DNA of 64,000 bases from Callorhinchus milii. Lineage: Eukaryota. This document shows, piece after piece, positions 36,763-63,507 of this stretch (the first letter of the stretch is position 1; each line of letters begins with the position of its first letter). Where the stretch lies: contig NW_024704742.1 of NCBI RefSeq assembly GCF_018977255.1, forward strand, positions 12,712,001 to 12,776,000. Reading direction: 5' to 3'. The notes under the pieces were generated by a model. That model ran no database searches. It was not told where the DNA came from and saw only the letters and a list, made by a program, of their open reading frames with translations. The translations under genes were made by a program, and so were the position numbers.

Positions 36763-36924
36763 TTAAACAGTGATATCAAATGGATCATTGAGCTCTCCTG
36801 CTGGACTGGGTACATGAATGTCCATGGAGATGTGAGCCAACTCATGATATGGCAATGATTGATAAGCTGTCAGTCGTCCGTACATCTTCTATTTTTCAAT
36901 GCATTTCAGCTTTGTTGAATCAAT
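36763..36924 (-). pseudogene. WD40 gene last exon: ..KLKCIEK*KMYGRLTAYQSLPYHELAH...GELNDPFDITV*
   Basis: ttgcag| acceptor; internal TAG 36889-36891; terminal TAA 36763-36765; AATAAA on minus strand at 36563-36568. Confidence 0.7.
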
Positions 36925-36989
36925 CTGCAAACAACAATTTATATTGTAATATTTTTTGCATCTGGAGGACATCTTAAAATGCTTCACAC

Positions 36990-37890
36990 AGCTGGCTTGG
37001 AGCTTCAGTGGTGGTGGGGGGTATGTGCTGAAGAGGATGGGGCAAGGTTGTGGAGTGATTTGAAAATGAGGGTCTTAGAATTTAATCCACTGGGGAGGTG
37101 AGTGAGGATAGGGTGACTGTTACACAGCCTGATGTGGGAGAGGACATATGCTGCAAAGATCTGGAAGGTATGAAGCTGGAGAGTCCCACGAGCAGGGTAT
37201 TGCCATTGAGCCAGGACATGATGAAGGGGTCTCTGGATCCCTGGTGGAGATGGTGAGGTTGCAGATGTGAGGGAACCCAGATATGGGATTTGAAGGACCG
37301 TTTGGTGTGGGGGGGATCCAAAAGGTACTAAGATTCGGCACTAGCTCCTTTGGGTGGAGTGAGCATCTGTACAAGCTCAGTGTTGTCGCCCCTAAGGTGA
37401 AAAGGTGCTGATAGGAGCCCAGTAGAACTTTGCTTTCAACATTTTTAGCTGAAGAAAGTTAGATTTTGTCGGATAGACAATGAGCCAGAACAACATTGAA
37501 CCTGGAAATGAGGGTGGAGGCAAAGTTGTGGAAATTTACCCAATGCCTTCTGATATCACACTAGGTGGGAACAAATAGATGATGAAAAAGAGACACCTGA
37601 GGATAGACCTCCAAGGAATACTCCATGAAACCGCGGGGACAGGAGAAGCTATTACAATAATCCTTGCATTTGATTGGCTGAGACTAATGTGGAGAATGGA
37701 GTCAAAGGCATGACTATCAAAGGCAGCAGAGATTGAGGAAAATGAGGCAAAGACCCCTGATTGCAGATGGAGAAGATGTCACTTCTCAGGCAATTCTGGT
37801 GTCTGGTGGGAGGGGGGCTGGAAAACAGGTAGGGAGCTCGTAGTGAGTCTTGTGAGAGGAAGGATCGGAGCTGGGAGGTGATGGTGAACT
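36990..37890 (-). mobile_element. highly degenerate L2 fragment
   Basis: purine-rich plus strand with residual similarity to other L2 copies. Confidence 0.5.
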
Positions 37891-38213
37891 TAAAAGTGAA
37901 TTCTGTTTATTACTGCAGTTTTCGGATGGACTTTGCTAATTCTACTAAAAAAAGTTGCATTTGATCATCGTGTTGGCAGATAAGACCTTGGTTTAACGTC
38001 TCATGTGGAGGATGGCACCTCCAACAATGCAGCACACCCCCTGCCTAGGTTATATGGGGCCCAAGTGCCAAAATGGGTCTTGAACCCCAACCTTCTGACT
38101 CGGAAGTGAGAGTTCTACCAACTGAGCCAGACTGCCACACAACACTTTATACTTAATAGGAAGGTGGCCATAATGTTCAGTAGATTACATGAGAAAATGA
38201 ATTTTAAAAGTAC

Positions 38214-38329
38214 CTGTTTTTCACAGTTGAGTCCAGCTGTTTTAACTCTTGTAATTCTGTGACACTTCGTTGTGAATAGGAACAGTGCTTCTTCTGCTTT
38301 ATTTTTAACCGAGAATCAAGGATGGAAAA
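38214..38329 (-). pseudogene. possible WD40 gene C-terminal exon: FSILDSRLKIKQKK...TVKN(R)
   Basis: ag|gtact donor and an open frame; acceptor and homology weak. Confidence 0.35.
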
Positions 38330-39689
38330 CTAAACTAACTTGATTCAGTTACATACCTGTTTGCCTGACTATTACAACCACCAATCAGTTAAACCAAACA
38401 TTTGAAGGCCTATTCAAATATAGTTCAGTTTGTGACTGCAGAGAACATCCTACTCTCCAAAGTCCTAGTATTATTGTGAAATGCTTATATCCTGTATCTG
38501 CTACAATTGACTTTCACAAAAGTCTTTTGATTATAATTTTATTGATGTGCAATGTCATTGGGTTTATGTTGTATGGATGACTGTATAAAATAGAACTTTT
38601 TCCTGTGCATTACTAACGTCATATTCATTGGATCAAAATCCTTTGCTTCCATATTGAACACCAATAGTTTATAATAATTCCAGATTATTTCTGATTACCT
38701 TTTCTGTCTCCCATCCTGCTCACTCCCACTTTCTCTCTGAAATGCTTTGAGTAATTTTCCAATGCAAAAGTCTTAAGTTTCTCCAGGACTGTGATCATCC
38801 CCAAATTGATTAAAAATGTTTCTCCTCTTACCTCCAGCTCCTATGGATTTGTGAGAATCCTAGAATAAATCTCTAAAGGTGGTGGAAAATAAGTAGAGCA
38901 AGCAAGAAGTATTTCCAGAGGATAATAAACAACTCAAACAGGTTACCTGCAAAGGATACTTGAGATCTTGTTGGATGGTAGGATGAGTATTGTGGAAGCA
39001 TGATCTTAAATAGTTCCTGTTTGAGAACCTTCTTCATCTATTGTATTCTATAGAGTCCCGTGCAGTAGTCTATTTTTGATATGAAAGTCACTACTTTGAT
39101 GTGTAATTCATTTTACTCATGAATTGTCAAGTTTCCTTCAATTGGGGAACAGATGCAGCATTCTCTATATGTTTTACCTCGGGTATTCATAATTGTGACA
39201 TCTAGACAACCTTTGAATTCTATCATTCCTCCAAGGGACAGTTCACATTTGAATTGATTTGCACAGCTGCTATCAATGTTACTCCCAAGATTAATGAACC
39301 AGGAAATACACTTGAGTAGTACCAAGCTTTCCCTCAAGCCAATCTGTTTTTGTTGTTCTCCAGTTGAACAAGATGCACTTGTGCAGCATCTTTTATTAAA
39401 GATAGTGTTTTATAAAGATTGGCGGGAGGTGGAGGGGAGGCAGGAAGAAGGTGGCTGAAGTGCATTAAGAGTTTTGAAGTGTTTTAAAAGGAAAGGGGGA
39501 AAGAGCGAGATGGAGGGAATTTTGGAAGAGATCCAGTGGGCGGGGACAAAGCGGTTGAAAGCTGTCTTATGAGGGGCAGAGGATTATGGAGCAGTGGGAG
39601 TGGGCAAAAGATCAAAGATAGGGCGGGGCAAAGTCATGGAAGCATTGAAGCTCACTTAGCCAACACAACTGCAATAGGGGTCAGTCTGA

Positions 39690-40077
39690 CTCAGTTGGTA
39701 CAGACAGAGGTGGTGGTCTCAAGCCCCATATCAGGATTTGGAATCCATATCCACTCCAGTCCTGGGAGTGTCCTGCATTGTTGGCACTCCCTTACATTGG
39801 ATGAGACATAGTGAGGTTCAGTCAGCCTGTCCAGGTGGATGTTAAAGATCCCTTGGCACCATTCGAAGAGAAGTGAGTTTCTCCCAGTGTCCTGGCCAAC
39901 AATCTTACTCAAATAAAACCCTGACCAATCACTCCACCGCTGTTTGTGAGATATTGCTATATGCAAAATGGTTGCCATGTATGTCCACAAAATACATAGT
40001 CACACCACTTTACACTATATCCTGTGAAGTGCTCTGAGATGTCCCAACAACACTGGCAAATGCAAGGATTATTTTAT
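39690..40077 (+). mobile_element. older Deu-domain-type tRNA-SINE
   Basis: ctcagttggta head; gcctgtccaggtggatgttaaagatcccttggcacc core; shared tail. Confidence 0.7.
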
Positions 40078-40132
40078 TAATAATCCAGAGCTCTAGTGAT
40101 CTTGCTTGACTGATCAGTAGTTTTACACTTAC

Positions 40133-40288
40133 GTTTGTTCCATTTTCACATTTTAAACTGGTTTGACTTGCTATCAATTGGCAGCTGTTTTTCTGACCAC
40201 TCTTCTTTAGAGAGGTCTTCTGGATGGAGAAGCTGCTGCCATGAGTTCCTGTTGTGAATATTCCAGAGTTCCTTTTGACCAACAAAAC
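40133..40288 (-). pseudogene. WD40 gene exon: FVGQKELWNIHNRNSWQQLLHPEDL...FKM*
   Basis: ttcag| ... |gtaagt, 156 nt; entry frame hits TGA at 40146-40148. Confidence 0.75.
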
Positions 40289-41173
40289 CTGAAACAATAT
40301 TTTAGTGGAATAATGTATTTTCCCTTACTCTTGTTTTTCTCCAATTCGTGCTGCATATTTCATGTAGAAGGACTGGACCATCTACAGTTCTTGTTAACTT
40401 TAAACTCCTCACCACCATTACACAATATTTGGGATTCTCTTCACGTCATAGTGAGACATAGTGGCCAAGTATCCAGCTTTGCAGACAGATCAAGAACTAA
40501 GTTAACAACAAATTACATTTGACCAGCGCCTTCCACAGCGGGAAGATGTCCCGAAGGCTGGGAGTATGGCAACACTCGACCAGTATGGCAACACTTGACC
40601 TTAAACCTGTAACTAGCATGTGCACAGGTAGGAAACCCAAGGATACCAGATGTTACTTACAATTCAATTAAAAACATGCAGTACAATTTAACCAAGGAAT
40701 GTAAATCTAAGCAGAGGTATATAATCCTGCATTGTGAAAAATGCAAATGCATTCCATTCCCTGCAGAACTTGCTTTTGCTGAATTTTGTGCCTATTAAGG
40801 TGACACATTAGTGCTGGGAAACTGAGGTACTGTGTATTGTGCTACTGCGCAAGCACTTTGGGGCGCCTCCCAAAGTGAAAGATGCTATATGAATGTAAAT
40901 TTGTATTATACCGAATCCTTAATGCGACTGGCGCTCTGAGGATGATTTTCTACTGTATTCTGAAATGGTTACCCTGGTGGAATAGAATAGTTGAGCCTTA
41001 AGTGTACAATTAATGAAATATAATATCAAGTTGATTGGATATTTTAATCTAAATTGGGTCAGTTCAATGCCACGTTACCTGGAACAATTTGTGCCACAGA
41101 GTGAAAGCAGGACTATTCCTCATCAACAAAGGGGCTGATCCAATTCTGCTGGTGTAACTGATACTCTACCTAC

Positions 41174-41259
41174 CTACGTACTCTCCTTCAACACTCCACA
41201 GCTTCACAGTACAGTCTGAGGAGCACGTTAGCAAGAACTGTTCTTCCACCAGCTTAATA
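41174..41259 (-). pseudogene. WD40 gene exon: IKLVEEQFLLTCSSDCTVKLWSVEGEYV(G) (open)
   Basis: ggcag| ... |gtaggt, 86 nt. Confidence 0.88.
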
Positions 41260-41999: not shown

Positions 42000-44900
42000 A
42001 AAATTGGCACGAGTATTGGGGAAGATGGGAGCTTTTCCAAAGGAATGGGCTCCACCTAAATAGGGCTGGGACAAATGTCCTGGCTACACGAATAAATAGG
42101 GAGGTAGAAAGGGCTTTAAACTACTAAGGGGGGGGGGGGGGGAGGTAAAACATAGTAAAGTATAGTCCACCACAGTTAAACTTGAGATCAACAAAAGCAA
42201 GAGAGCAGATTAACAAGGAAGAAGAGCAAAGTGTCAAGCAGGGAAAGGAAGTACGGTGATAGAGTGCTGGTGAATAGGGTTAATAGCCAGAAGTCAGAAT
42301 TAAGGGCGCTATATCTGAATGCACGAAGCATTCGTAACAAGATAGATGTATTAGTTGCACAAATAGAGACAAACCGGTATGATTTGTGGAGTCCTGTAGC
42401 TCAGTGGTTAGAGCACTCGCTTTGCAAGCGAGAGACCTGAGTTCAATTCCAGGCAGGGCGAAACCTTGGGCAAGTTTCCTTACTCCACACCCCTAATAAT
42501 AATCCCTCCAAAACCAAAAACAATAAATAAATTGGTCATTTTCAATCTACGACTGTTTGTGGGACATTGCTGTGCGCAATTGGCTGCCGCGTTCGCCCAC
42601 AAATATACAGTCAATTCACTTTACAGTGTGTTCTGTGAAGCGCTTTGGGACGTCCTCTCGACGTGAAAAGCGCTATATCAAATGCAAGGATTATTATTAT
42701 TATTATTATCTAGTAGCCATCACCGAGACATGGTTACAGGGTGATCAGGGATCGGAACTGAATATTCCCGGCTACGTGGTATATAGGAAAGATAGGCGAT
42801 GTGGTAAATGAGGAGGGGGAGTGGCCCTGCTAATAAAGGATGGGATAAAAACAGTAGAGAGGAAAGATTTTAAATCTGAAAAGCAAGATGTAGAGTCAGT
42901 ATGGGTAGAGATACGTAACTTCAAGGGGCAGAAAACTATAGTGGGAGTAGTTTATAGACCCCCAAACAGTGGTCAAAGTATCGCTCAAGGTATAAATCAA
43001 GAGATTAGTGGAGCATGTAGCAAAGGAAAGACACTAATTGTGGGTGATTTTAACCTGCACATAGACTGGGACAACCAAATTGGGAAAGGTAACATAGAAG
43101 AGGAGTTTATAGAATGTATTAGAGATAATTTTCTAGATCAATATGCTGAGGAGCCGACCAGGGAACAAGCCATATTAGACCTTGTTTTGTGTAATGAAAC
43201 AGGGCTGATCAGCAAACTGGAACTTAAGGCTCCTCTAGGGCAAAGCGATCATAATATGATGGAATTTAGCGTTAAGTTAGAGAGGGAAGTAGTTAAGTCT
43301 GAAGCAAAAGTCTTCAATTTAAATCGAGCCAACTTTGCTGGTATGAGAGAGGATTTAGCCAGAATAAACTGGGAGACTAAACTTAAAGATTTGACGGTAG
43401 ACCAGCAATGGCAGACATTCAAGGAGATAGTGCAAAATTCCCAACGAGCACATATTCCTTTGAGGAATAAGAATGCCATGGGAAAGGTGGTGCAGCCATG
43501 GCTAACTAGAGCAGTTAGGGAAAGTATCAAATCAAAAGAAAAAGCCTATAAAACAGCGAAGATGAGTAGTAAACCCGAGGATTGGGAGAACTTTAGGGAA
43601 CAACAGAGGAGGACCAAAAAATTGATCAAGAGGGAGAAAATAGATTACGAGGGCAAACTAGCAAAGAACATAAAAACAGACTCCAAGAGTTTTTACAAAT
43701 ATATAAAGAGGAAAAGGCTAGCGAGGGTGAATGTGGGTCCATTACAGGCAGAGACCGGAGGAATTATAATAGGGGACAAAGACATGGCAGAGTCATTAAA
43801 CAAGTATTTTTCTACAGTCTTCACCGTAGAAGACACTGGAAACATACCAAAAATAGAGGACCAAGAAGACAATGTTAGCGAGCAACTTAGGGAGATTAAC
43901 ATTAGTAAAGAGATGGTTCTAGGTAAATTGTCGGGTCTTAAAACCGATAAATCCCCTGGACCGGATGGCCTGCATCCGAGAGTTTTAAAGGAGGTGGCTA
44001 CTGAGATAGTGGATGGCATGTCTATAATCTTCCAAAAGTCTGTGGATACTGGAAAAGTTCCCATTGATTGGAAGATTGCAAACGTAACTCCACTATTTAA
44101 GAAGGGTGGGAGAGAAAATAGGGAAAACTATAGACCAGTTAGTTTGACGTCAGTTGTAGGGAAAATTCTTGAGTCCTTAATAAAAGACGTAGTTATGGGA
44201 TACCTGGAAGACCATAAAAAGATTAGGCAGAGTCAACATGGCTTTACAAAAGGGAAGTCATGCTTGACTAACCTTTTAGAATTTTTTGAGGATGTATCCA
44301 GCAGGTTGGATAAGGGGGAACCAGTAGATGTGGTATATTTGGATTTTAGGAAGGCATTTGACAAGGTGCCACACAAAAGGCTGTTACTCAAGATCAAGGC
44401 CCACGGGATTAATGGGAAAATATTAACATGGATAGAAGAGTGGCTATCGGGTAGAAAGCAGAGAGTAGTGATAAACGGATCATTCTCGAATTGGCAGGAT
44501 GTAACTAGTGGAGTGCCACAAGGATCAGTGCTTGGGCCTCAGCTATTTACCATTTACATCAATGATCTGGACGAGGACATTGAATGTAATGTGTCTAAAT
44601 TCGCGGATGATACTAAACTAGGTAGCAGAGTGAGCTCTCAGGATGATGCAAAAAGATTGCAACAAGATATAGATAGGCTAGGGGAGTGGGCAAGTAGGTG
44701 GCAGATGGAATTCAATGTTAGCAAGTGTGAAATTATTCACCTTGGTAGCAAGAATAAAAGAACAGATTATTTTCTGGAAGGGGAGAAGTTAGATAGTGTT
44801 AGTATTGAAAGGGATTTGGGTGTCCTTGTACACCAGTCCCAAAAAATTAGTTTGCAGGTGCAGCAAGCAACTAAGAAGGCGAACGGCATGTAAGCGTTCA

Positions 44901-45486: not shown

Positions 45487-45549
45487 AATATACAATTTTC
45501 AGTGGGAAAAATATCCAAAGCACCTTAAGCCAAGCCATTTCCATCTTAC

Positions 45550-45589
45550 CTTGTGACATTGCATCCATGAGCTCTCCAGCATGCCAGCA
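45550..45589 (-). pseudogene. WD40 gene exon: (M)LACWRAHGCNVT(S) (open)
   Basis: aaag| ... |gtaaga, 40 nt. Confidence 0.85.
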
Positions 45590-45695: not shown

Positions 45696-45837
45696 TTTTG
45701 GGAGGACATGTTTCAGGTTCATGAAGCGCATAGTGAAGAACGTGCCAAATGTAAACATAGCCAAGATGGTCAGCAACACAAAGGAGCAAGCCATCCTCTC
45801 CAACATCCATATTATTCAATGTAGCTTTAGATCCAGA
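45696..45837 (-). pseudogene. WD40 gene exon: SGSKATLNNMDVGEDGLLLCVADHLGYVYIWHV...CPPK (open)
   Basis: atcag| ... |gtaaga, 142 nt. Confidence 0.88.
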
Positions 45838-46344: not shown

Positions 46345-46488
46345 AGCAATCCCCAATCGACTAACAACCAAGTAAACAGAGGTGTGTGAAGTAAGGAAAC
46401 TTGCCTAAGGTTTCGCCCTGCCTGGAAATTGAACCTGGATCCTCTTGTTTGCGAGGCCAGCGCACTAACTATTACGCTACAGGACTCC
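46345..46488 (-). mobile_element. tRNA-SINE 5' half
   Basis: reverse complement of the ggagtcctgtagc head. Confidence 0.8.
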
Positions 46489-48264: not shown

Positions 48265-48323
48265 ACATTGAAAGTGGGACCATAGTTTTCCACCACTAAA
48301 AACATTCCAAAAATGGATGTGAC
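48265..48323 (-). pseudogene. WD40 gene exon: (G)HIHFWNVFSGGKLWSHFQC (open)
   Basis: ttaag| ... |gtaagt, 59 nt. Confidence 0.85.
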
Positions 48324-51070: not shown

Positions 51071-51620
51071 TATTTATTTGACCTATATTTATTTATTTTG
51101 TATTTATTGGTCCGATGTTTATTGGACATTGCAAGTGCAGATTAGCTGCCATGTTTGCCTATATAACAACATTCAGAAGAGATGTTAAATCGAGGCTGTT
51201 CATTAAAGATTCCATGGCACGATTTGAAAAGAGAAGTGAGCGTTTTCCAGTGTCCAGGCTAACAATCCCCCAAATAAAATTGGTCCTTTACATCATGACT
51301 GTTTGTGGGACATCACTGTGCACAAATTGGCTGCTGCATTCGCCCACGGGACATCCTCCTGATTTGAAAGACACTCTACCAAATATAAGGATTTATTTTT
51401 ATTATTTATTCACTTCATTTCTCATCATTTGTATATGAGAAATGAAGCGAACAGTGCTTTGAAACATTTATTTTTTTACCTGGAAGCTGCTATACAAATA
51501 TAAATTATTGTTGGCACTAACGTATTGAATGCGCAGAATCAAAATTAATTTTCACCTGCCTGCTTTAGATACAGTATTTTTTTACATTTGAAAAGTCACA
51601 GTGGTTTTGCATATACTGAC

Positions 51621-51713
51621 CTCTCGGTCCGCTGGCAACCAGCGATCCTGACGCTTTCCTACTTGCAGCTCAAGATCTGATGAAAAGCACTTTGCTGATG
51701 GTCAGGTCTTCAC
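51621..51713 (-). pseudogene. WD40 gene exon: EDLTISKVLFIRS*AASRKASGSLVASGPR
   Basis: ggcag| ... |gtcagt, 93 nt, in-frame TGA at 51670-51672. Confidence 0.85.
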
Positions 51714-53148
51714 CTGCCAGAGTACAGTTACACACCAGAGAACAGATGAGGCAAGCAATTTTGTAGCAACTTCAAAAGCTATCTCCCTCTCTGGCTCTCT
51801 CTCTCTCACCTCGCTGACTCCCTCCTTACCTCCCTCCTACCATTTGTTGGATATCAAGAAAGGTCACCCAGCATTCCATTTAGGCAAAATCTGTTAAGCC
51901 AACCATTACTAGTTCCATAAAGTTACACCATGGAGGGATTACAACAAAGCAATACTACCGCGGGTCGGGATGTTCAGCAGCCGAGGTTCCAATCTGTCTT
52001 GTCTGGGTGTTCAAGCTTTTTGATCTTCCATCAAGTCTTCCCTCGTGCTCCTCCGATCTTTTCCTTCTTTGTTCTCCCTGTCTTTATATTCTCATCCCAC
52101 TCCCTCTATACCTTCCTCCAATCTCTTATCAGTCAATAACAACCCGTTATTAACATATCCAATCATGTTTCCTTCAACCCTCTTTCTTTGTACTGACTCC
52201 ATATGTTCCATGACCTCTCACCCCTCTTGACCCTTGTTAGTATGTTAATTCTGTACCCTTATGCTAACACATCCTCTCTCTCCGACTCCTCTCTCTCCCT
52301 GCTCTCTTTCTCTTTGAGTCTCTCCCTCTGACTCTCTCCATCCCTCTATGACTTCCTCCGTTCTCTCTTTCTCCCACACTTCCTCCTCTCTCTCTTTTTC
52401 CCTTCTTCCCTCCAATTACCCCCTCCACTCTCTCTCTCTGATCCCCTCCCTCCTATATTTATCATACCGTTGATTCCTGAGATCATATATTCACTCCCTG
52501 GCTGTTCGTGGGACATTTGCTGTGCGCAAATTGGCTGCCACATTCACCCACCCAAAAAACACAATCATACCATTTTACATCCTGTAAAGTGCTTTGAGAA
52601 GTCCTGATGACATGATAAGGCGTGATATCAAATGCAAGGATTATTATTTGTGGTGTTCTTTCAAGGCATTCCAACACTCAGAGATCCACCACATAGAGAC
52701 TGGTTGACCCAATAATCAGGAGAGAAAATTAAACCTCCTTTACTGGAATTACAAAATTAACAAGATTTTAAACCTGCTGGGTCAAATCCAAATTAGCAAT
52801 CACTTTAAGATGTGGGTTGATAGACAGCCTGAACCATAATCATAGCCATTCATTAATTCAGAGAAAATTTCTCAAGTTGTTAAAATCTCCCCTCCTAAAA
52901 TTTAACTGATAAAATGTAGGAAAATTAGTAAATTCAGTCTTAATTTTGGACAGTTTTTCTTGTACTGCAGAAAAACAACTTCCAAAGACTGAGTTTAAGA
53001 ATTTTCCAAAATTCTGCACAATCCTAAATTTTAAGGCAGTGGTCTTAATAAGAAATAAGAATTTCAATTGTCAAAAGACCCAGTTTTATTACCCAACTAC
53101 TGAGTTATTATTATTATTAGAAAGTAAGGATGAACAGCCCATACTTAC

Positions 53149-53300
53149 CTGACGCTGCCTGAAGCACTGGACTGGTGGTGGAGTGAAGATGGCAAAAGAT
53201 CAGACCTGAAACGAAGTTCCACACAATAATTTCACCATCGTAACTGGAGCTGGCCAGCAGGTTGGGCGACCGACAAAACCTCATCATTGTGGCTGTTTTT
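53149..53300 (-). pseudogene. WD40 gene exon: KNSHNDEVLSVA / frameshift / PNLLASSSYDGEIIVWNFVSGLIFCHLH...
   Basis: tacag| ... |gtaagt; 152 nt; the two halves of one WD repeat are in different frames. Confidence 0.88.
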
Positions 53301-53639
53301 CTGTAATTATTTGAAATTGAAAAGAAAACAAAATTGAAACCATTTACAGGGTCCGCGCCGTGGTCTGGAATGTGTACGTCATGTTTAAAAAACAGTGCAC
53401 TGGTTGAGGCAATGTTGGGCTGTGTGAGGTTGGTTACTGTGATTGGTGCTTACAGCAATTACCATCAAACTGGAAGAATGTTATTTTCTGAATTACAGAC
53501 ATGATAAAATGCCACTGATGGTAGGTAGAACCACCCAATAAAGTACAAAATGTGGGTCAAAATTCTCCATCAATTCTCTTCAATGACAATACAGAAATGG
53601 GCCTGTGACCATGGTTAATACCTTTGACTTAGTCTTCCT

Positions 53640-54385
53640 GGTGTCAGCCTGGCTCAATCAGTAGCACTCTAGCTTCCAAGTCCGAAGGTGAACCCCCACG
53701 TTAGGATTTTGAACTCATTTAATCTTGGCTGGCACTCCAATGCAATGCTGGGGGTGTGCTGGCTTTTTGGAGGTGCCGACCTTTGAATGAGATGTTAAGC
53801 CATGTCTGCCTCTTCAGGTTAAAGAATCTATGGCACTATTCAACTTCAAGATCCTCACTCTTGTCCACAAATCCCTTTCTGCCCTAGCACCTCCCTACCT
53901 TTCTGATCTACTTACTTCACTACCCGCCACCTCCGCTCCGCTGGTTCTGGCCTTCTGCTTGTCCCAACCACTTCACCATTGGCAGGTGTACTTTCAGCCA
54001 CTGCACCCCAAAACTTTGGAACTCTTCCTCAATCCCTCCATCCTGCCCTCTCCTTCCCCTTTCTCAGTTCACGCCTGAAGACATTCCTCTTCGAACGTGC
54101 TTATAGTCACCTCCTCCCTAACCCCAGCTCGGCATCAAGCTCCACTTCCGTTAAGCATTCCGAGACCGGTTTCTCCCGGTGTCTTGGCCAACAATCCCCC
54201 AAATAAAATTGACTGTTTAAGCAACATTGCTATGTGCAAATAGGCTACCTCACAACAACTTGCACTTATGGCCATAAGCATGGTACAAGATACAGTCACT
54301 ACACTTTACAATAAATCTTGTGAAGCACTTTGAGATATCCTTCTGATGTAAAGCATACTGCATCATATGTAAGGATTATCACTAT
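53640..54385 (+). mobile_element. older SINE split by an L2 fragment (about 53840-54160)
   Basis: SINE core stops at ggcactattc and resumes at ttctcccggtgtcttggccaac; FKILTLVHKSL..APPYLSDL in between. Confidence 0.7.
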
Positions 54386-54417
54386 TATTCTTGAAGAACT
54401 TGCAAAACTCAAACTAA

Positions 54418-54960
54418 TAAGAACATAAGAAATAGGAGCAGGAGTAAGCCATTCGGCCCCTTGAGCCTGCCCCGCCATTAAATAAGATCATGTATGATCT
54501 TCTAACCTAATTCAATTTACCCGCCCTTTCCCCATATCCCTTAATCCCTTTAGTTTTTAAAAATCTATCGATCTCAGTCTTGAATATGTTCGATGACTGA
54601 GCATCCACAGCCTTCTGGGGTAGAGAATTCCATAAATTCACTCATTTAAATGTTTCCTCAACTCAGTTCTAAAAGGCTGACCATTAATCCTGAGACTATG
54701 ACCCCTAGTTTTAGATTCTCCAACCAGGGGAAACCAATATCTACCCTGTCAAGACCCTTAAGAATCTTATAGGTTTCTATAAGATCACCTCTAATTCTTC
54801 TATATTCTAGAGAATATAGGCCTAGTCTGCTCAACCTCTCCCTGTATGTCAACTCCCTCATCCCAGGAACCAACCTAGTCAACCTACATTACATCCCCTC
54901 TAAGGCAAGCATATCCTTTCTTAGATAAGGAGACCAAAACTGCACACAATATTCTAAGTG
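54418..54960 (-). mobile_element. CR1 3' fragment
   Basis: RLVPGMRELTYRERLSRLGLYSLEYRRIRGDLIETYKI; tail. Confidence 0.9.
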
Positions 54961-54963
54961 CTT

Positions 54964-55360
54964 GGGGGGGAGAGGAGGGGGGGAGGAGAGAGGGGACGTG
55001 AGGGGGCTATTGAGGGGGGGCAGAGAGAGTGGGGGAGAGAGAGGGGGGGAGGGGGGGGAGAAGAGAGGAGGGGGAGAGAGGGAGGAAGGGGGAAGGGAGG
55101 GAGGGAGGGAGGGGAGGAGAGGAGGAAGATAGAGGGGGACAGGGAGGGGGAAGACACTCTCTTCCCCCCTCTCTCATAGGCAATCTCTCCTCTCACCCAC
55201 ACTCTCTCTCTCTCAATAACTCTCACTCACTCACTCCCCTTCTCACACCCTCTCAAACTCTCTTCTCTCTCACATTCCACCTCCCCACCCCCCTCTTTCT
55301 CTCTCCCCCTCCCCCCCCCCCCCCCCCACCCCCACTCCCCCTCTCTCTCCCCTTCCCACT
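54964..55360. repeat. polypurine tract followed by polypyrimidine tract
   Basis: G/A-rich 54964-55152, C/T-rich 55156-55360. Confidence 0.85.
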
Positions 55361-55899
55361 AATGGAAACAGGCTATGTGGTCCAACTTGTCAATGTTTAT
55401 ACTTCTTACAAGCAAGCATCCCTCCTAATAGCTTCTACTATACCCCTCTATTCCCTTCTTCCTCATTTAAGCCTTACATTTCCTCTTAAATATGTTAATT
55501 TTCTTTGGTTCAACCACAGTGTAATTTGCTTTGCTTCAACCACAGAGTAATGAGTTACACATTCTCACCCCCTCTGCAAAATGAAGTTTCTCCTAAACTC
55601 TCTGTTTGTGGCTATCTGATATTGATGCCTCCTTGAATTTGACTCACCAGCAAATGGACACTTTACCATATCATAAATCATAATCTTAAACACCTCTATC
55701 AGGTCCCCTCTCAATTATTTGATCTCCAACAATAGCAAATTACAATTTGCATAGTTCCTTTCACGTCAGGAGGACGTCCCAAAGTGTCTCCCACCTCCTT
55801 CCTGTCCCAGTACTGGTGCCAGTGTCCCATGAAATGGAACTCCTTCCCACACCACTCTTTCAGCCACACATTCATTTTTCTGATCTGTTTATATTTATG

Positions 55900-56170
55900 T
55901 CAATGTGCTCAAGTAGTAATTCAGAGATTACCATACTCGAGGTCCTGTTTTTTAATTTAGTTCCTAGCTCCTGATAATCCCTTAGCAGGACCCCCTTCCT
56001 ATTCTTTCCAATGGCGTTGATTCGGACATGGATCATGACAACTGTTCCTTTCCCCTCCTTTTCCACATTCCTTTCCAACCGCTTGGAAATATCCCTTACC
56101 CTGGCACCGGGTAGGCAACATACCCTTCTGGACTTCGATCACGACTGCAGAGGATACCCTCTATCTCTTT
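55900..56170 (-). mobile_element. CR1 ORF1 fragment (SGNH esterase-like)
   Basis: PGARVRDIS..VVMIHVRINAIG..YQELGTKLK..VISELL. Confidence 0.75.
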
Positions 56171-56869
56171 GATTATGAGTCAGGCATTTTCTAAAAACCA
56201 CCAGAATACAGGACAATTTTCATGTTGTGTTGCTTCTTCTGCTGCCTACTTCGATAGATTATGCAATATAACGCATTGACATTAACTTTAGCAGATCATA
56301 CATTACATGCATTGCTTTCAAACTCTAATATCCTTAGAGCACATCAATAGCAGTTTGTTGTAATGAATTTTTTTCCTAAATCACATCAAATTCATACTCT
56401 GCAGGGAAGTATATGGTTAAATGTTTATGAAAGCCCTATACAAATGTAATTATTATTATTGCAGCAAATGCAGCAGCCATTTTGCAATACTTCACAAGCA
56501 GCCATGAAGTGAATGACTAACTTATCTGGAGGATTTGGCCAAGAGATCAGGAGAAATTCCCTTCAGTTTTTGAATAGTTTCATAGAAACTTTAACAACCA
56601 CCTCAACCAACATTGTTTCAACAAGTTATCAGAACCAGGATATTGCAGGGATAGTGATTCAGTTATCACAGAATATGCATTTGATTTCATCAATGTGGAT
56701 TGATGTTACATTTTTTTTATTACAGTTTAAACAGCCTAACCTAGTCTAATTATAAGTGGGAAATGTACTGTTGTATTGATGCACATTGGTTGATTACAGC
56801 TATTCAGATTTAAAACAGACAAACGTCGGGCAGTTCAAACTAATCATTACCAACTACAGGAAACAATTT

Positions 56870-57350
56870 ACCACAGCATCATTGCCAACTCTCTACTCAC
56901 TGGATTACCCTCTTCTCCCCTTCACAAGCTGAAGACTATCCAGAACTCTGCAGCTCTTGTCCTTTTCCGCACTGAGCTTTCTACTGGCAGGATGTCCCAA
57001 AGAGCCTATCACCCCATCCTTGCCCAACTCCACTGGTGCCCCATCCGGCAGGGGATTGAGTTCAAAGATCCTCGTTCTAATCTTTAAATCCCTCCATGGT
57101 CTTGTCTCACTCTACCTCTGTGATCATTTCAAACCCTACCAACCAGGCTGCTTCCTCCGTTCTGCGGGTACCAGCCTGCTTCACATGCCCTGCCCTACCC
57201 ATCCCACCATTGCTGGACAAGCTTTTAGCATACTTGCCCCATTCTCTGGAATTCCTTCCCTTTAACTCGCCCCTTCCCTCTCCTGCTTCAAGATCCACTT
57301 CAAGATCTTCCTCCTTGACTATTCCTTCAGCCACCTCCCCTCCCACCGCA
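56870..57350 (+). mobile_element. degenerate L2 3' fragment
   Basis: atccagaactctgcagct; KILVLIFKSLHGL. Confidence 0.8.
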
Positions 57351-57696
57351 CTTGTAATACAATAATATTGCACCTTTCACAATGAGAGGACATGCCAAAG
57401 CATTTCACAGGATTTACTGTGAAGTGGAGTGACTGTGTTATACTATAAGAGCATGTGGAAAGGTAATTGAGAGTATCACTCTGATGTGTTTCTGTCATTT
57501 TACAACAGGCCTTCTAAATACAAATTAATTCAACAAAGCTTCCAGGATTATTTTTTAGTGGAAAATGCTCTGATGGTGCATTATGAAAATGTCCACCTAT
57601 TCTTCTGTAAGAAATACTAGGAAGCAAAAAGAAATAAAGCCTGCTAACCCTATAAAAGTGATATGGTGATAGCTAGATGACTTAAACATGTCTTAC

Positions 57697-57746
57697 TGTA
57701 TCATCTGCCCAATGGAATAATGGATACAGTGGACCGCAAAAGTTTC
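57697..57746 (-). pseudogene. WD40 gene exon: ..NFCGPLYPLFHWADDT
   Basis: tgcag| ... |gtaaga; 50 nt, not a multiple of 3 between presumed phase-0 introns. Confidence 0.65.
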
Positions 57747-58015
57747 CTGCAAACAGAGTATCAAATGGGTCAGGAAACATCTAAAACACAAAATTCACGC
57801 ACAAAATACAGTCAATCCACTTTACAGCACTTTGAGATTTCTCAATGAGATGACAAGACGCTATATCAAATGCAAGGATTATTATTATTATTAAACACCT
57901 AAACAGGAAAATGCATCCAGCTGTTTACAATGAGCATCCAATCAGTCAAATACTTGTGTCTAGTTTTGCAGCAAGAACATTCAGACAAACCAATCTTCAT
58001 TTGAAAGATGATGAC

Positions 58016-58064
58016 TGTTGCACATATGTTGATCCTTCTGTCTGAGCCAACTGATATTATAAAC
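58016..58064 (-). pseudogene. WD40 gene exon: FIISVGSDRRINICA; donor uncertain
   Basis: aaag| acceptor; only a weak gtcatc donor nearby. Confidence 0.75.
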
Positions 58065-58197
58065 CTTTGTAAAGTGTGGGGGGGGGAGGTGGGAGGGAGG
58101 GAGAGAAGAGAAAAAGGGACATACTGTTTAGAAACAAAAACATTTACCAACACTGCTTTTCAAACTTTAAAAAGACACAGAAAATAAATCCTGTTTC

Positions 58198-58258
58198 CTG
58201 TTTTTGTATGTTTCAGCATAGATACAGTGATTAACTTCCATTGCATCTTCAGCTGGAA
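58198..58258 (-). pseudogene. WD40 gene exon: PAEDAMEVNHCIYAETYKN(R); donor reads GA
   Basis: tgcag| acceptor; phase fits both neighbours only if the intron starts at gaaaca (58197). Confidence 0.7.
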
Positions 58259-58380
58259 CTGCAAGATCGCTTATTTATTTATTTATTTATTATTTATTGG
58301 TTAACAGATTTCCTTCTGTATTACACACTGTAAACGATTTGTGGACAAATGCAGAAACCAGAATCCGTTCCCTGACTTAC

Positions 58381-58460
58381 CTTGTCTCAGAGTCTTTACA
58401 CAGCAGCCACGTTTATAGTCCCATTTCTTCAGACATTCGTCTCTGCCACCTGTTATGAGC
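58381..58460 (-). pseudogene. WD40 gene exon: LITGGRDECLKKWDYKRGCCVKTLRQ (open)
   Basis: tgcag| ... |gtaagt, 80 nt. Confidence 0.88.
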
Positions 58461-59319
58461 CTGCAAAATATACAGTCACTACACTTTACAATATATTCTG
58501 TGAAGCACTTTGAGACATCCTCCCACCTGGCATAGTACTGTAGTGACTGTACTAGAACCTCAGGCAGAAAGGCTCCAGGGGTGGAGATGCCGATGACCCC
58601 ATCTCTCTCTTGCTGGGGCTGGGCTGAGAAGGGTGGAAACCTTGGGCTGGCCCATGGCCAGGGAGCATGAGATTTAGGGTACATGGCTGGCCCAAGGGTA
58701 ACTAATGGTTGAAGCAAGGAAGATTGTGAGTTCGCGGGTGTGTAAGAGGGACGGTAGGCATCAACCTCAAGCCCAGCTGCTTGCATCCCTCCGCAGTCAT
58801 TGTGTTGCTGTTCTGAGTTTCTCCCCCACCACAGATTAAACCTGGTTTATAGTGAGAGTCTCCATATGTGTCTCAAAGCTGCAGACAGCCTTGTGTGCTC
58901 TCAATATCAGGTTAAGTGGTTGACTTGCCTCAACCTCAGTGAGACATGCATAGGAGTGTCTATAGTACTTAAAGTAAACCTAGTAAATCTTCCTCACAGT
59001 TCCGCACAAGTGAAACTGACAAGTCAGGACATACCTCCTATTTACACATCTGCTTGATATGTCTTATTTTGCCCAGTTAATCTGAGGTGGAAAAATAACT
59101 CACCTCCCTTCCTGATCACTGTAATAATGTGGCTTATATAAAAGCAATAGGATTAATATGTACTCAAATAAAAAGTGGTTATGCATTAAATTGGAATTCC
59201 AGGCCAGATTACTATTGCGTTAGGTATCTGGGTGAGCAATTGAGAAATTGCAGCTATTCTGCCCCTTATTCTTTGCATGTAACTGTTTACTTTTGTCATT
59301 TTTATAACCAAAGAAGGGC

Positions 59320-59702: not shown

Positions 59703-59854
59703 CACATATGAAAATAAAGTAAATTTTCATTTGCACAAGCACTAAATTAAACTACCATGTTTTTAGTGTTCCTTCACTCCCTCCTATTCCTGAACCACTC
59801 CACTTCTGAATGGTCAGGCACAGAGTGCAGCTATGGACAGGAAGTGACAGAACA

Positions 59855-60164
59855 AATAATAATAATAATCCTTGCATTTGATAAAGCGTTTTTCACGTCT
59901 TCTAGATGTCCCAAAGCGCTTCACAGAACTGTAAAGTGAATTGACTGTATATTTGTGGGTGAAACGCGGCAGCCAATTGAGCACAGCAGTGTCCCACAAA
60001 CAGTCATGGATTGAAAATGACCAATTTATTATTGTTTTGTTTTTTTGGAGGGATTATTATTAGGCGTGTGGAGTAAGGAAACTTGCCCAAGGTTTCGCCC
60101 TGCCTGGAATTGAACTCAGGTCTCTCGCTTGCAAAGCGAGTGCTCTAACCACTGACCTACAGGA
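59855..60164 (-). mobile_element. young near-full tRNA(Ala)-SINE
   Basis: closely matches the reverse complement of 42388-42709. Confidence 0.92.
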
Positions 60165-60261
60165 CAAAGCTGGCAGTTGCACACAGATGACCCGTCACCC
60201 GTCTTAAAATAGCAGAGAAAAAACAGAGTGGACAAATTTTACACAGCTATAATAATCCTTG

Positions 60262-60364
60262 CAACAAAAACAGAAGTCGTTGGGAACACTCAGAAAGTCA
60301 GGCAGCATCTATGGAGAAAGGAAAGTGAGTCAACAATTTGGGTCCACAACCCTTTGTCAGAACT
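60262..60364 (-). mobile_element. single Penelope-like terminal repeat arm
   Basis: similar to 29815-29914. Confidence 0.7.
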
Positions 60365-60822
60365 CAAGGCTATCAAATGCAAGGATAATAATATCCGTGC
60401 TCTTGATAGCCTTATTATGTGATTATAGCCTTATTAAATGCTGCGTGCTTTATGATGCTACTCCACTTGAAGGGCAGTATATAAATGCAAGTTGTTGTTG
60501 AAACGTCTCAAAGCAAGCTAGCAACGATAAAAGAAAATCTCTGGTAAGGAGTGACTAAGATCAAAAGAAAATTAATTTATTTATTAATTTAGCAAGAAAT
60601 GAAATCTAAAACTGGGGTTCAAACAAGCACAATTTACAGGTTGAAGGCAATATTTTGTTAAGAGTTAGTAAGCAATTCACAACTATATTATAGAAATGTT
60701 TCAGTTGCAAGGTGAATAAATAGGAACATTGCAATTTTTCAGTGTTAGGTTTGATTTAATTGTAACCAAGTTCATGTTAAACAATTCTAACCAGAAAGTC
60801 AGTTAGGTCTGCGGTACTGTAC

Positions 60823-60857
60823 CTTGTTTCAGTGTTACCAAAGGCCATGCAGGTTAT
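60823..60857 (-). pseudogene. WD40 gene exon remnant (3' part only): ITCMAFGNTET(R)
   Basis: |gtacag donor in phase with next exon (R-LITGG); 5' part and acceptor absent, replaced by minisatellite/L2. Confidence 0.75.
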
Positions 60858-60861
60858 GAAA

Positions 60862-61216
60862 GGGGGGGGAAAGCTGAGGGGGGGGGAAAGCTGAGGGGGG
60901 GAAAGCTGAGGGGGGGAAAGCTGAGGGGGGGGGCGGGGAGCTGAGGGGGGGGGGGCGGGGAGCTGAGTGGGGGGGAAAGCTGAGGGGAGGGGGGGGAAAG
61001 CTGAGGGGAGGGGGGGGAAAGCTGAGGGGAGGGGGGAAAGCTGAGGGGAGGGGGGGAAAGCTGAGGGGAGGGGGGGGAAAGCTGAGGGGAGGTGGGAAAG
61101 CTGAGGGGAGGGGCGGGGAAAGCTGAGGGGAGGGGGGGGAAAGCTGAGGGGAGGGGGGGGAAAGCTGAGGGGAGGGGGGGGGAAGCTGAGGGGAGGGGGG
61201 GGGAAAGCTGAGGGAG
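60862..61216. repeat. G-rich minisatellite, unit about G(6-9)AAAGCTGAGGGGA, about 18 copies
   Basis: about 18 AGCTGA cores separated by G runs. Confidence 0.92.
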
Positions 61217-62290
61217 GGGCGAGAGCCGAGGTGGGTGTAATAAGATGAACAAAAGTACAGCTAAAGAGGTAAGTCTTGAGATGGACCTTGAACGAGTTGA
61301 AGGAGGGAGCGAGTCGGGGAGACTCCAGAATGAAGTTCCAGAGAGTGGGGGCAGAAAGGCTGAAAGTCCATCTGCCGATGGTCGGGCGGGGGATGTGAAG
61401 CAGGCCGATGCTCCATGGGATAGTTAGTAGGAGGCTGCCAAGGTAGGGTGGAGCAAGGCTATGGAGGTATTTAAAAGATAAGAATGAGGATCTTGAACTT
61501 GATTTACTGTGGGATGGGGAGCCAATGGAGCCAAGTGAAGATGGGGGTGATAAGCTCACAGAGGCTAGTGTAGGAAAGATACGAGCTGCAGAGTTCTCAA
61601 TAATCTGCAGCTTGTGTATTCAAGAGGCAGGTAGTCTGAGGGGCAGAGCGATGGCATAGTTAAGCCTGAGATAATAATTGCATGGATGAGAATCTCAACA
61701 GCCTGAGGGGAGAGGATTTGACAATGGTAGACAATGTTTCATAGGTGGGGTAAAATTAAGTGGCTAAGAGCATGGACGTGGAGTTAAAAACACAGTTGGG
61801 AGTTAAACAAGACATCAATATTCTGCACAGGTTCTGTGAGATGGAGTGTGCATCCATGCAAGTTGATGATGTCAGCACCTGAACTGTTAAGGTGCTGAAG
61901 GGAGTCTCTGTATTTTTGGTTTTCAACTGAAGAGAGATTGAGCTGATGGAGGACTGGATATCTGACAGGCAATCAGTCAGGAAAGGTTGGTTAGAGATGG
62001 AAACGTAACTGGAGCAAAAATGGGTCAAGGGAGAGATTTTTTGAGAAGTGGGTGGTGACAACAGTTTTGAGAGAGATGGGAATTGTACCAGTGTACAAGG
62101 AGCAGTTCACAATAACCGTTAAAATGGGCAAAGAGGTGAAGCTGGGAGGTCAGGAGATGAGTAGGGATGCGGTTAAGGCAGCATGTTATGAGTTTCATGA
62201 AGGAGGAAAGGAGGAAAGAAAGAATGAAGAAAAGATTGAAACTATGGAAGGAGGAGTGGATGGAGGCTAGAAGGGAAAGAGGAGGGGGAG
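61217..62290 (-). mobile_element. degenerate L2 LINE lacking its normal 3' tail
   Basis: KYLHSLAPPYL..APTLWN..FKVHLKTYLF; GADIINLHGCTLHL. Confidence 0.85.
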
Positions 62291-62550
62291 GGAGTAAGGG
62301 GTAGCACGACGAATGCTCACGAGTTTGGACCCAGGGAAGTCCATCATCTCCTTGCTTTTGGAGGAGCCAAAACTTATACATAAATAGTGGCCACTTGGGC
62401 AAGTTACCAGAGAGGTTTCTGTGGACTATAGCGAATAGGAAGAAATATAGAAGTTAAACCCACTTCAGAAGAGAGGAGAATAACATAGGTCTGTTACGTT
62501 GCTAAATTCTCAGGGGAGTAAATGAACTGTCTTGAACAGTTTGTACTTAC

Positions 62551-62653
62551 AGATCCTTCAGAACAGCTGATGACTTGTTGGAAAGAATTGCTGTAATCAC
62601 AGCAGAGTACCTCTTCTTTGTGAGACACTGATTTGCTGTCACGCAGCTCCTTT
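62551..62653 (-). pseudogene. WD40 gene exon: KELRDSKSVSHKEEVLCCDYSNSFQQVISCSEGS (open)
   Basis: cag| ... |gtaagt, 103 nt. Confidence 0.88.
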
Positions 62654-62767
62654 CTGCATATAAAAGAAAATATCTAGTAAGCGATGGTGTCATCAGTTAA
62701 CATTACCCACCTCCTGACAAGTGCCACAGCGAGAGAAGAGTCCCACCCGCTGTCCTGGTCTAACTAT

Positions 62768-63065
62768 AATAATCCTTGCATTTGATGTAGCGCTTTTCAC
62801 GTCTTCTAGACGTCCCAAAGCGCTTCACAGAATATACTGTAAAGTGAATTGACTGTATATTTGTGGGCGAACGCGGCAGCCAATTGCGCACAGCAGTATC
62901 CCACAAAGTCGTTGATTGAAAATGACCAATTTATTATTGTTTTTGGTTTTTGAGGGATTATTATTAGGCGTGTGGAGTAAGGAAACTTGCCCAAGGTTTC
63001 GCCCTGCCTGGAATTGAACTCAGGTCTCTCGCTTGCAAGGCGAGTGCTCTAACCACTGAGCTACA
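62768..63065 (-). mobile_element. young near-full tRNA(Ala)-SINE
   Basis: closely matches the reverse complement of 42388-42709. Confidence 0.92.
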
Positions 63066-63362
63066 AATCACTGGCGCAAATCAGTACTTTAAGTAATGAG
63101 CTGTAATAATAATTAGTTGCATTTGATCTCATTTGTAACATCTTAAAATGCTTCACACAATGAGTTACTTTGAATTCAGTGATTCTCGGTGTATGTCTCT
63201 CTCCTTCTCTGCCAATGCCTCTCTTAATAGTTACACATTTGATTATATTTGCTGTGCAATGTATCTCAGTTAAATCTAGTTATGTATTTATGTGTTTGAT
63301 TTTGTGACACTGTGAAAGATGTTGCTATCCGTGCTCTCCATTCGAGATATTTTCTTACTTAC

Positions 63363-63507
63363 CTGTCAGTGAGCTGTAGTAGAACCAGGGAATTTGTTGC
63401 AATGCACTCAGATCTTCAGAATGATAACAGGCAGACAGTTCTCCTCTGAGCTGAATAGTTTTAGGGTTTATGGTAGTGAGACATGTCTGATCTTCAATAT
63501 CCCATAC
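63363..63507 (-). pseudogene. WD40 gene exon: VWDIEDQTCLTTINPK...DLSAL / frameshift / ATNSLVLLQLTD(R)
   Basis: tag| ... |gtaagt; 145 nt gives phase 1 but the next exon needs phase 2; frame switch near 63400. Confidence 0.85.

Follow-up and report, generated by a model that had tools for sequence, protein, structure and literature searches.

Members of the CFAP337 family

The prototype of the family, FAP337 in Chlamydomonas and CFAP337A/B in Tetrahymena, combines an EF-hand with two WD40 propellers and a coiled coil. These proteins are placed on the axoneme, close to the N-DRC (bioRxiv 10.1101/2023.05.31.543107, PMC6761771), and FAP337/CFAP337 is described as binding CCDC96/113 and CFAP57 and as contacting inner-arm dynein d. 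These protist homologues are distant, and their function has been shown biochemically. Among mammals, mouse Wdr95 knockouts are described as fertile (PMC13253961), and human WDR95P as a pseudogene adjoining HSPH1 at 13q12.3 (PMC7890067). Like the locus described below, WDR95P is a dead WD-family member beside a gene of the HSP110 family. Unlike it, WDR95P belongs to the other paralogue, has HSPH1 and not HSPA4L as its partner and is found in a different lineage.

In Callorhinchus milii itself, a long-form gene on C4 (P0013, 1050 aa, with EF-hand and WD40 domains) belongs to the same family as our locus, shares 11 identical exon lengths and the same phases with it, and is likewise tail-to-tail with an HSP110-family gene. 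In contrast to our locus, this gene is intact, with 28 GT-AG exons and no lesion, and falls in the other gnathostome clade. Short forms are found in elasmobranchs (P0001 from a sawshark, P0004 from the zebra shark, P0002 from a catshark, and P0006 and P0096 from skates) and are orthologues of our locus by the tree given below, the sawshark protein with 59% identity over 524 columns. They are annotated as protein-coding, whereas our locus is broken, having lost its 5' exons together with e11, e12 and one half of e15. The EF-hand match PF13499 is listed for long forms, e.g., P0013, and was not seen in the short-form rows inspected.

The locus lies in a 64,000-nucleotide stretch of Callorhinchus milii DNA and continues upstream of it; the whole stretch was analysed and is called the window here. 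Exact protein matches identify the genome as that of this species. It is very probably a unitary, unprocessed pseudogene of the short-form "CFAP337-like" gene, and we refer to it as the relic.

Exon relics and lesions beside HSPA4L

With two shark "CFAP337-like" proteins as tblastn queries, 16 exon relics were found on the minus strand, running in order from 63507 to 36766 and colinear with the queries. The same 16 were recovered by a protein-to-genome aligner using two references. The first-pass annotation, which had proposed at least 15 small minus-strand exons forming a WD-repeat gene and a tblastn search with family proteins as a check, is thus borne out by both methods. Exons are named e13 to e28 after the numbering of the intact Callorhinchus milii paralogue. 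Five more relics upstream of the window bring the series to 21, colinear with proteins of the CFAP337 (WDR49)/WDR95 family. Eleven relic exons, including those five, have exactly the lengths of the C4 paralogue's exons, and the intron phases are those of the paralogue wherever they are defined. Matches to WD40/propeller Pfam models were weak, found in 4 of 9 exon ORFs and all under the curated cut-offs (the exons are short); full-length relatives of the relic carry PF00400. Within the window, the relic has kept 15 introns, which rules out a processed (retro-) pseudogene. It is arranged tail-to-tail with HSPA4L, and in the window about 5.1 kb separate the stop codons of the two genes.

Six exons had been described as still open, and these proved clean in the aligner. 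Five of them have the same length as in the paralogue: e14 (62551..62653, 103 nt, with AG/GT), e16 (58381..58460, 80 nt), e22 (48265..48323, 59 nt), e23 (45696..45837, 142 nt) and e24 (45550..45589, 40 nt). The sixth, e25 (41174..41259), has 86 nt vs 89 in the paralogue.

Seven of the eight lesions claimed in the first-pass annotation stand. Exon e13 (63363..63507) has 145 nt vs 152 in the paralogue; there is a 7-nt overlap between the two homologous frames, and the net 7-nt deletion produces the frameshift proposed near 63400, at about 63400-63408. The half-missing exon placed at 60857 is e15, of which only the 3' 38 of 107 nt survive (60823..60860), followed by a GT donor whose phase fits e16. 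The remnant directly abuts a tandem array of period 15/21 (60861..61219), and this array, together with a dispersed LINE-derived repeat (61242..62295, with copies at 66-82% identity elsewhere in the window), has replaced the 5' half of the exon. Searches for that half returned no match above shuffled controls, and a candidate at 59270-59213 was rejected, as 15 of 100 shuffles scored equally well.

Exon e17 (58198..58252) has the 55 nt of its counterpart in the paralogue, and a tandem acceptor is also present at 58258. Its donor is indeed GA (58197-58196), at a conserved intron position, and in-frame splicing could use a weak cryptic GT that lies 21 nt downstream of it. The one claim that failed was that of an out-of-phase 50-nt exon at 57697. 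This exon, e19 (57697..57780), is really 84 nt long, open, in phase with e18 and e20, and has an in-frame canonical GT-AG join to e18 (58016..58064, 49 nt), the GT donor of which is weak. A by-eye reading of an AT donor after about 58028 was likewise discarded, the canonical in-frame join being present instead. Further along, e20 (53149..53300) has 152 nt vs 163 in the paralogue and carries the expected frameshift, seen near 53265 in the first reading and placed by us at about 53262-53267. In e21 (51621..51713), an in-frame TGA (51672-51670) replaces a reference Arg. We rejected a selenocysteine reading of this codon, as the references have Arg and nine other lesions are present.

The last three exons are damaged beyond what had been described, with frame changes in all three and a lost acceptor. 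In e26 (40133..40288), the homology shifts frame between about 40195 and 40157, so the TGA reported at 40146 (40148-40146) is real in the entry frame, but the homology has left that frame before reaching it. In e27 (38214..38309), the homology shifts frame at about 38249-38262; its homologous start at 38309 has no AG acceptor, and the first downstream AG is at 38298-38297. The last exon, e28 (36763..36924), contains the in-frame TAG noted at 36889 (36891-36889), where the references have Gln, as well as a phase mismatch or 1-nt frame change at about 36911-36914; the ancestral stop, TAA, is at 36765-36763. For e26-e28, the exact positions and the number of frame changes rest on weakly conserved coiled-coil sequence, and if the homology in two segments is ignored, there is a GT-AG path that meets only two stops. 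Altogether, the exons in the window require five frame corrections and contain two in-frame stops, the GA donor, the truncated e15 and the lost e27 acceptor.

Upstream of the window, we found an AT donor in e7 and a 1-nt deletion in e9, and e1-e5, e11 and e12 were undetectable there. No 5' exon scored above shuffles within 30 kb of sequence beyond the window, and over 18 kb upstream of e6 a recognisable start and the 5' exons are absent. A possible e11/e12 remnant at extended coordinates 64769-64674 (16/33 in the aligner) was rejected, as Smith-Waterman searches for e11 and e12 gave nothing above shuffles.

Coding capacity, sequence quality and orthology

The protein cannot be encoded by any isoform of the relic. 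In a frame-aware splice search, the best stop-free isoform using native sites retained 178 of 500 homologous codons (36%), and the best one with 8 cryptic sites retained 329 of 500. No splice isoform retains more than 66% of the homologous frame, and a bypass of all lesions was not found. One could still argue that the locus is useful, either through a truncated or alternatively spliced WD protein made from e22-e25 or as a non-coding or small-RNA host transcript: most of its splice sites and six of its exons are intact, the decay of the protein sequence is slight, and piRNA clusters are described in introns of mouse Wdr95. We regard such a use as improbable in view of the low ceiling on stop-free isoforms with native sites, the missing start and 5' exons upstream of e6, and the Rfam matches, which are tRNA-like SINE heads only.

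It is more improbable still that the animal has an intact gene and that the lesions, which were read from one assembly of one holocephalan genome, are sequencing or assembly errors. Long-read assemblies can produce frame errors of 1-2 nt, and four of the frame changes are of this size only. Nevertheless, the aligner found no lesion in 45 control exons of the same assembly, i.e., the 28 exons of the C4 paralogue and the 17 of HSPA4L. The latter lie only 5 kb away; the first reading had seen no defects in them, and they are all clean against the species' own protein. Against 0 of 45 controls, 8 of the 16 relic exons in the window are disabled (Fisher p 4.4e-6), or 10 of 21 when those upstream are included (Fisher p 1.7e-6). 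Moreover, the lesions include two substitutions to stops, donors changed from GT to GA and from GT to AT, a deletion of 7 nt, a half exon replaced by repeats and exons that are absent altogether. In four sequencing runs of whole-genome size, taken from four samples, 61-67% of the words sampled from 51500-58600 are present, a measure that is not lesion-specific. Three runs presumed to be RNA contain small shares, which counts neither for nor against expression. A polymorphic pseudogene, with a dead haplotype sequenced and an intact allele segregating, is hardly to be expected either: at least 10 independent lesions plus the missing exons imply a long neutral decay of the haplotype, and an intact allele persisting alongside it would be unusual.

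As regards its origin, the relic is the sister of six elasmobranch short-form proteins (SH-aLRT 99) inside a 21-row clade with a support of 100, and in a reduced 21-row tree it again groups with the short forms (100/100). A clade of the relic and the C4 gene was rejected by an AU test (log-likelihood lower by 297.5, p-AU 7e-33), which was run on 21 rows with a simpler model, the tested group having been named after the first tree had been seen. In six species, the short-form protein and HSPA4L are on equally sized contigs, which does not prove adjacency; in the zebra shark, for instance, both genes are on a common chromosome-sized contig. The long form and HSPA4L are on differently sized contigs in five species. 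The same species, family, exon lengths and phases notwithstanding, it is therefore scarcely credible that the relic is a duplicated pseudogene, copied recently from the C4 gene and now dead, with no gene lost, given that the AU test rejects their grouping, that the relic falls in the other paralogue clade and that its neighbour is HSPA4L, to which short-form genes are linked at chromosome level in six species.

The tree places the relic as the holocephalan orthologue of the short-form paralogue kept by elasmobranchs and many bony vertebrates. The earlier description of a decayed, intron-containing gene of WDR49/WDR95 type agrees with the relic's position inside the family, its retained introns and its lesions. 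That name is right for the family, but the rodent Wdr95 cluster and the shark genes named CFAP337 by NCBI both belong to the other clade, so that neither is the exact orthologue; in our tree, the hamster cluster named Wdr95 falls among the long forms.

In a whole-genome six-frame search with a shark protein, which scores best candidates only, strong multi-exon matches were obtained only at the window and at C4, and the remaining matches were weak and confined to one exon each, on C11, C18 and C1:23.98 Mb. Among these best candidates, no intact short-form copy was found elsewhere in the genome. Together with the retention of the gene in elasmobranchs, this upholds the proposed lineage-specific loss as far as one holocephalan genome reaches.

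History of the locus and its meaning

The unitary pseudogene is a lineage-specific loss of a clean but ordinary kind. The gene would have encoded an axonemal double-WD40-propeller protein, and its introns and genomic place have been kept. The relic departs from 8 of 90 invariant positions vs 13 of 205 for the functional paralogue, a slight amino-acid decay that does not by itself demonstrate relaxed constraint. Because protein-level decay is slight, the loss appears to be late, and constraint may have been lost late in the holocephalan lineage. The first impression of a loss recent enough to be readable fits this amino-acid divergence, which is barely above expectation. The loss was probably tolerated because the intact long-form C4 paralogue would cover the axonemal role, and the locus is now presumably without protein-coding function.

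Pairs of a WD gene and an HSP110-family gene occur twice in this genome, HSPA4L being the partner of the relic and another HSP110 paralogue that of the intact C4 gene. One exon of the C4 neighbour and one of HSPA4L both score 141 bits against HSP105 (PDB), which cannot tell the two apart. We tentatively raise, as a rather doubtful joint reading, that an ancient tail-to-tail WD/HSP110 pair was block-copied in the early vertebrate genome duplications and that its WD partner died independently, as WDR95P by HSPH1 in humans and as the relic by HSPA4L in the chimaera. On the same doubtful footing, the unusually good preservation of the relic might reflect residual use, through a transcript or 3' regulatory region held in common with HSPA4L, and not youth alone.

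Whatever the history of the pair, of two axonemal CFAP337-type paralogues one was lost, and this loss is documented here and dated to the holocephalan lineage. The Callorhinchus milii genome often serves as a slowly evolving jawed-vertebrate reference, and this locus should be entered as a loss, and not as a missing prediction, both in annotation and in comparative studies. The WD/HSP110 pairing, present twice in the genome, offers a modest yet usable marker for tracing the ohnologue history of both families. Finally, the fertility of mouse Wdr95 knockouts and the presence in humans of WDR95P alone suggest that each paralogue of this family is dispensable on its own and that such losses have recurred.

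The minus-strand WD-repeat gene and its exons

The window (G000:C1:12712001-12776000) is vertebrate DNA, with about 41% G+C and many LINE and SINE copies. When an exon-like minus-strand ORF was used as a query, two shark proteins were matched: P0001, a sawshark 'cilia- and flagella-associated protein 337-like' of 681 aa, and P0002, a catshark hypothetical protein. Both returned, by tblastn against the window, an ordered series of minus-strand matches from 63507 to 36766 that spans residues ~152-681 of P0001, and the hidden multi-exon WD gene proposed in the first-pass annotation is therefore real. That annotation was essentially right in both observation and interpretation: the decayed gene (the relic) is very probably a unitary and unprocessed pseudogene, well preserved, of the CFAP337-like paralogue that is linked to HSPA4L.

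Lesions were called with a custom aligner in the style of GeneWise, which models matching codons, frameshifts, in-frame stops, and introns of all three phases, whether canonical or broken. On the minus strand of the window, two shark references yielded identical exons and identical lesions. Exons (all minus strand) are numbered after the intact long-form paralogue on contig C4, hereafter the C4 gene. Exon e13 (63507-63363) is 145 nt long vs 152 in the C4 gene and has two homologous frames that overlap by 7 nt, i.e., the frameshift first read near 63400, and e14 (62653-62551) is clean. Only the 3' 38 nt of e15 are left (60860-60823, the half-missing exon first seen at 60857); they directly adjoin a tandem array (60861-61219), beside which lies a dispersed LINE-derived repeat (~61242-62295) with further copies in the window. 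For the 5' half of e15, no match above shuffled controls was found between e14 and e16 (58460-58381, clean). The GA donor at 58197 is real and sits at the conserved phase-2 intron position of e17 (58252-58198); 21 nt downstream of it, a cryptic but weak GT could allow in-frame splicing. The same exon has a doubled acceptor, two in-frame AGs spaced by 6 nt (58252-58258, minus strand) that resemble NAGNAG tandem acceptors.

Enumeration of canonical donors and acceptors between e18 (58064-58016) and e19 (57780-57697), both open, gave an in-frame GT-AG join with 58016 as the last e18 base and 57780 as the first e19 base. The out-of-phase 50-nt exon proposed at 57697 thus does not stand as a robust lesion, and an AT donor suspected between the two exons was dropped on account of the same join. 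Further along, e20 (53300-53149) is 152 nt vs 163 in the C4 gene, with the expected frameshift near 53265, and in e21 (51713-51621) the TGA noted at 51670 (51672-51670) replaces a reference Arg. Exons e22 (48323-48265, 59 nt), e23 (45837-45696, 142 nt), e24 (45589-45550, 40 nt) and e25 (41259-41174, 86 nt) are clean and, with e14 and e16, make up the six exons said to remain open. The TGA reported at 40146 is present in the entry frame of e26 (40288-40133) at 40148-40146, but the homology changes frame within that exon. It also shifts frame in e27 (38309-38214), whose homologous start lacks a preceding AG acceptor. Lastly, e28 (36924-36766) shows a phase mismatch and the TAG noted at 36889 (36891-36889, for a reference Gln), followed by the ancestral TAA stop.

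Five relic exons were recovered upstream of the window, in the extracted genome stretches L012 and L011: e6 (L012:2530-2622, 93 nt vs 93 in the C4 gene), e7 (L012:672-717, 46 vs 46, with an AT donor and then a stop), e8 (L011:7842-7888, 47 vs 47), e9 (L011:4155-4271, 117 vs 118, a 1-nt deletion) and e10 (L011:3984-4053, 70 vs 70). Searches for e11 and e12 gave nothing above shuffles, and no exons for residues 1-124 of the zebra shark protein (P0004) were detectable, with a positive control scoring 121 vs 39 for the best shuffle. The conceptual translation of the relic, built from coordinates, needs its frame corrected six times, at five places in the window and one upstream, and contains two in-frame stops.

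The window holds other elements besides. A LINE copy in the e25/e24 intron (42812-44893, plus strand) has an uninterrupted 693-aa endonuclease/reverse-transcriptase ORF and may be a young element; a decayed LINE of the same type, its reverse-transcriptase ORF in several pieces, lies in the e21/e22 intron (49248-51069, minus strand). Five tRNA-like matches (42390-42461 and 33322-33389, plus strand; 60095-60166, 62999-63070 and 46413-46486, minus strand), three of which ARAGORN calls tRNA-Ala (TGC), look like the heads of tRNA-derived SINEs instead of tRNA genes because the same flanking sequence recurs. In the e19/e20 intron, a long purine/pyrimidine-skewed simple repeat (54889-55400), which translates as poly-Pro/Ser/Leu or Gly/Arg/Glu, is weakly similar to the tandem array adjoining e15.

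Controls and alternative splicing

As a control, the aligner reproduced the C4 gene exactly, with zero lesions. It likewise recovered the 17 in-window exons of HSPA4L (1050-31623) with zero lesions, in agreement with the first-pass annotation. Tiny low-identity 'exons' that appeared in both controls, where the true exons lay outside the supplied sequence, represent overfitting and were disregarded. Disabling lesions are found in 10 of 21 relic exons vs 0 of 45 control exons (Fisher p 1.7e-6), or in 8 of 16 relic exons when only the window is counted (p 4.4e-6). They are diverse in kind: base substitutions that create stops or alter splice sites, a deletion of 7 nt, replacement by repeats, and loss of exons. 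Between 61 and 67% of sampled words of 51500-58600 were present in four whole-genome-sized runs (four samples); the stretch thus occurs in other data too, but the figure does not bear on individual lesions.

Alternative splicing that bypasses all lesions, which the first-pass annotation named as a refutation, was also looked for. With every canonical site up to 30 nt from an exon boundary permitted, an 'open' chain of fragments always resulted, which made that search uninformative. Rescue was scored instead by whole homologous codons kept in frame, out of 500 and disregarding the missing exons. Native sites with free exon skipping kept 178 codons with 0 non-native sites, cryptic sites within 12 nt kept 261 with 7 non-native sites, and cryptic sites within 30 nt kept, at best, 329 with 8. 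No splice isoform of the relic rescues the protein.

Paralogue identity and the HSP110-family neighbours

A homologue search with P0001 retrieved 589 proteins, and the best 120 of these served as the pool. Among the 120 matches listed was P0013, 'WD repeat-containing protein on Y chromosome [Callorhinchus milii]', whose exact matches on C4 chain into 28 exons; these run from residue 80 through the TGA stop, with all introns GT-AG. A tree of 54 rows, i.e., the relic and 53 of the 120 proteins spanning both length classes, vertebrate groups and outgroups, resolved two gnathostome clades (SH-aLRT 100 each). The long-form clade (~1050-1110 aa) includes the C4 gene, the shark genes that NCBI names CFAP337, and all sampled mammalian (8), avian (1), crocodilian (1) and eel (1) rows. 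The short-form clade (~840-890 aa) contains sharks, skates, lungfish, coelacanth, amphibians, turtles, squamates, sturgeon and bowfin. The relic is sister to six elasmobranch short forms (SH-aLRT 99), and the C4 gene mirrors this placement as sister to six elasmobranch long forms (SH-aLRT 99). A reduced tree of 21 rows placed the relic identically with support of 100, and on these rows a clade of the relic and the C4 gene, a grouping chosen after the first tree was seen, was rejected by the AU test (log-likelihood lower by 297.5, p-AU 7e-33).

At 90% identity, the hamster long-form row clusters with proteins named Wdr95, WD40 repeat domain 95 and also WDR49; rodent Wdr95 therefore falls in the long-form clade. 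The original description of the gene as 'WDR49/WDR95-type' holds at the family level, but by the tree the relic is the other, short-form paralogue. When the best candidates from a six-frame search of the 991.5-Mb genome were scored, multi-exon matches to the shark protein occurred only in the window and on C4, with single weaker exon matches on C11, on C18 and at C1:23.98 Mb. The C11 match (G000:C11:18,340,736-18,340,915, minus strand; stretch L009) covers 60 residues at 48% identity to the shark WD protein within a 114-aa open frame, and could represent either a further member of the family or a WD gene unrelated to it.

HSPA4L is the gene next to the relic: P0130, 'heat shock 70 kDa protein 4L [Callorhinchus milii]', matches the window exactly. 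The two genes are convergent, with stops ~5.1 kb apart. A short-form protein and HSPA4L lie on equal-sized contigs in six species (zebra shark, bowfin and four geckos), with three of the six short-form proteins placed in the tree and the other three assigned by length and name. This is chromosome-level linkage and does not imply adjacency. The long form and HSPA4L are on differently sized contigs in five chondrichthyans. The C4 gene (G000:C4:70,478,882-70,517,076, plus strand, stop at 70,517,076) is tail-to-tail with an HSP110-family gene (minus strand, from 70,562,889 down to at least 70,534,021), as the relic is with HSPA4L, and human WDR95P is described as adjoining HSPH1 (PMC7890067). It is thus plausible that the WD/HSP110 gene pair was copied as a block. 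The start of contig C13 carries a third HSP110-family gene (G000:C13:21,968-36,566, minus strand), whose individual exons are 60-83% identical to those of HSPA4L, and the WD-protein genome search gave no match on that contig.

Age of the loss and the role of the family

In the 54-row tree, the terminal branch of the relic is 0.44 vs a mean path of ~0.45 for elasmobranch short forms, and that of the C4 gene is 0.33 vs a mean of ~0.28 for elasmobranch long forms. By summed branch lengths in the 21-row tree, the chimaera-to-shark path is 1.45x as long in the short-form clade as in the long-form clade, and shark-to-skate paths are ~1.3x as long. Of the positions that do not vary among all other functional members, 8 of 90 are changed in the relic and 13 of 205 in the functional C4 gene. 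These branch lengths and counts indicate that the predicted amino-acid sequence of the relic carries little extra decay and that most of its branch was probably spent under constraint. We infer, rather than measure, that the load of frameshifts, stops and damaged splice sites in ~1.9 kb fits a few percent neutral divergence, which would correspond to tens of millions of years since a split roughly 400 million years old.

Among the matches listed for CFAP337, WDR95, WDR95P and C. milii gene loss, titles and abstracts gave no account of the relic locus, and a pseudogene may already be marked there in the official annotation. Chlamydomonas FAP337 and Tetrahymena CFAP337A/B are described as having an EF-hand, two WD40 propellers and a coiled coil, and as sitting on the doublet microtubule near the nexin-dynein regulatory complex, where they need CFAP57 and CCDC96 and touch the stem of inner-arm dynein d (bioRxiv 10.1101/2023.05.31.543107, PMC6761771). 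Among solved structures, the chain nearest the shark short form belongs to a more distant relative, WD repeat domain 64 (9fqr, E 4.6e-50). Mouse Wdr95 is described as testis-enriched and without a human orthologue, and knockout males as fertile with normal sperm (PMC13253961). In the elephant fish, the intact long-form paralogue would cover the role of the lost short form.
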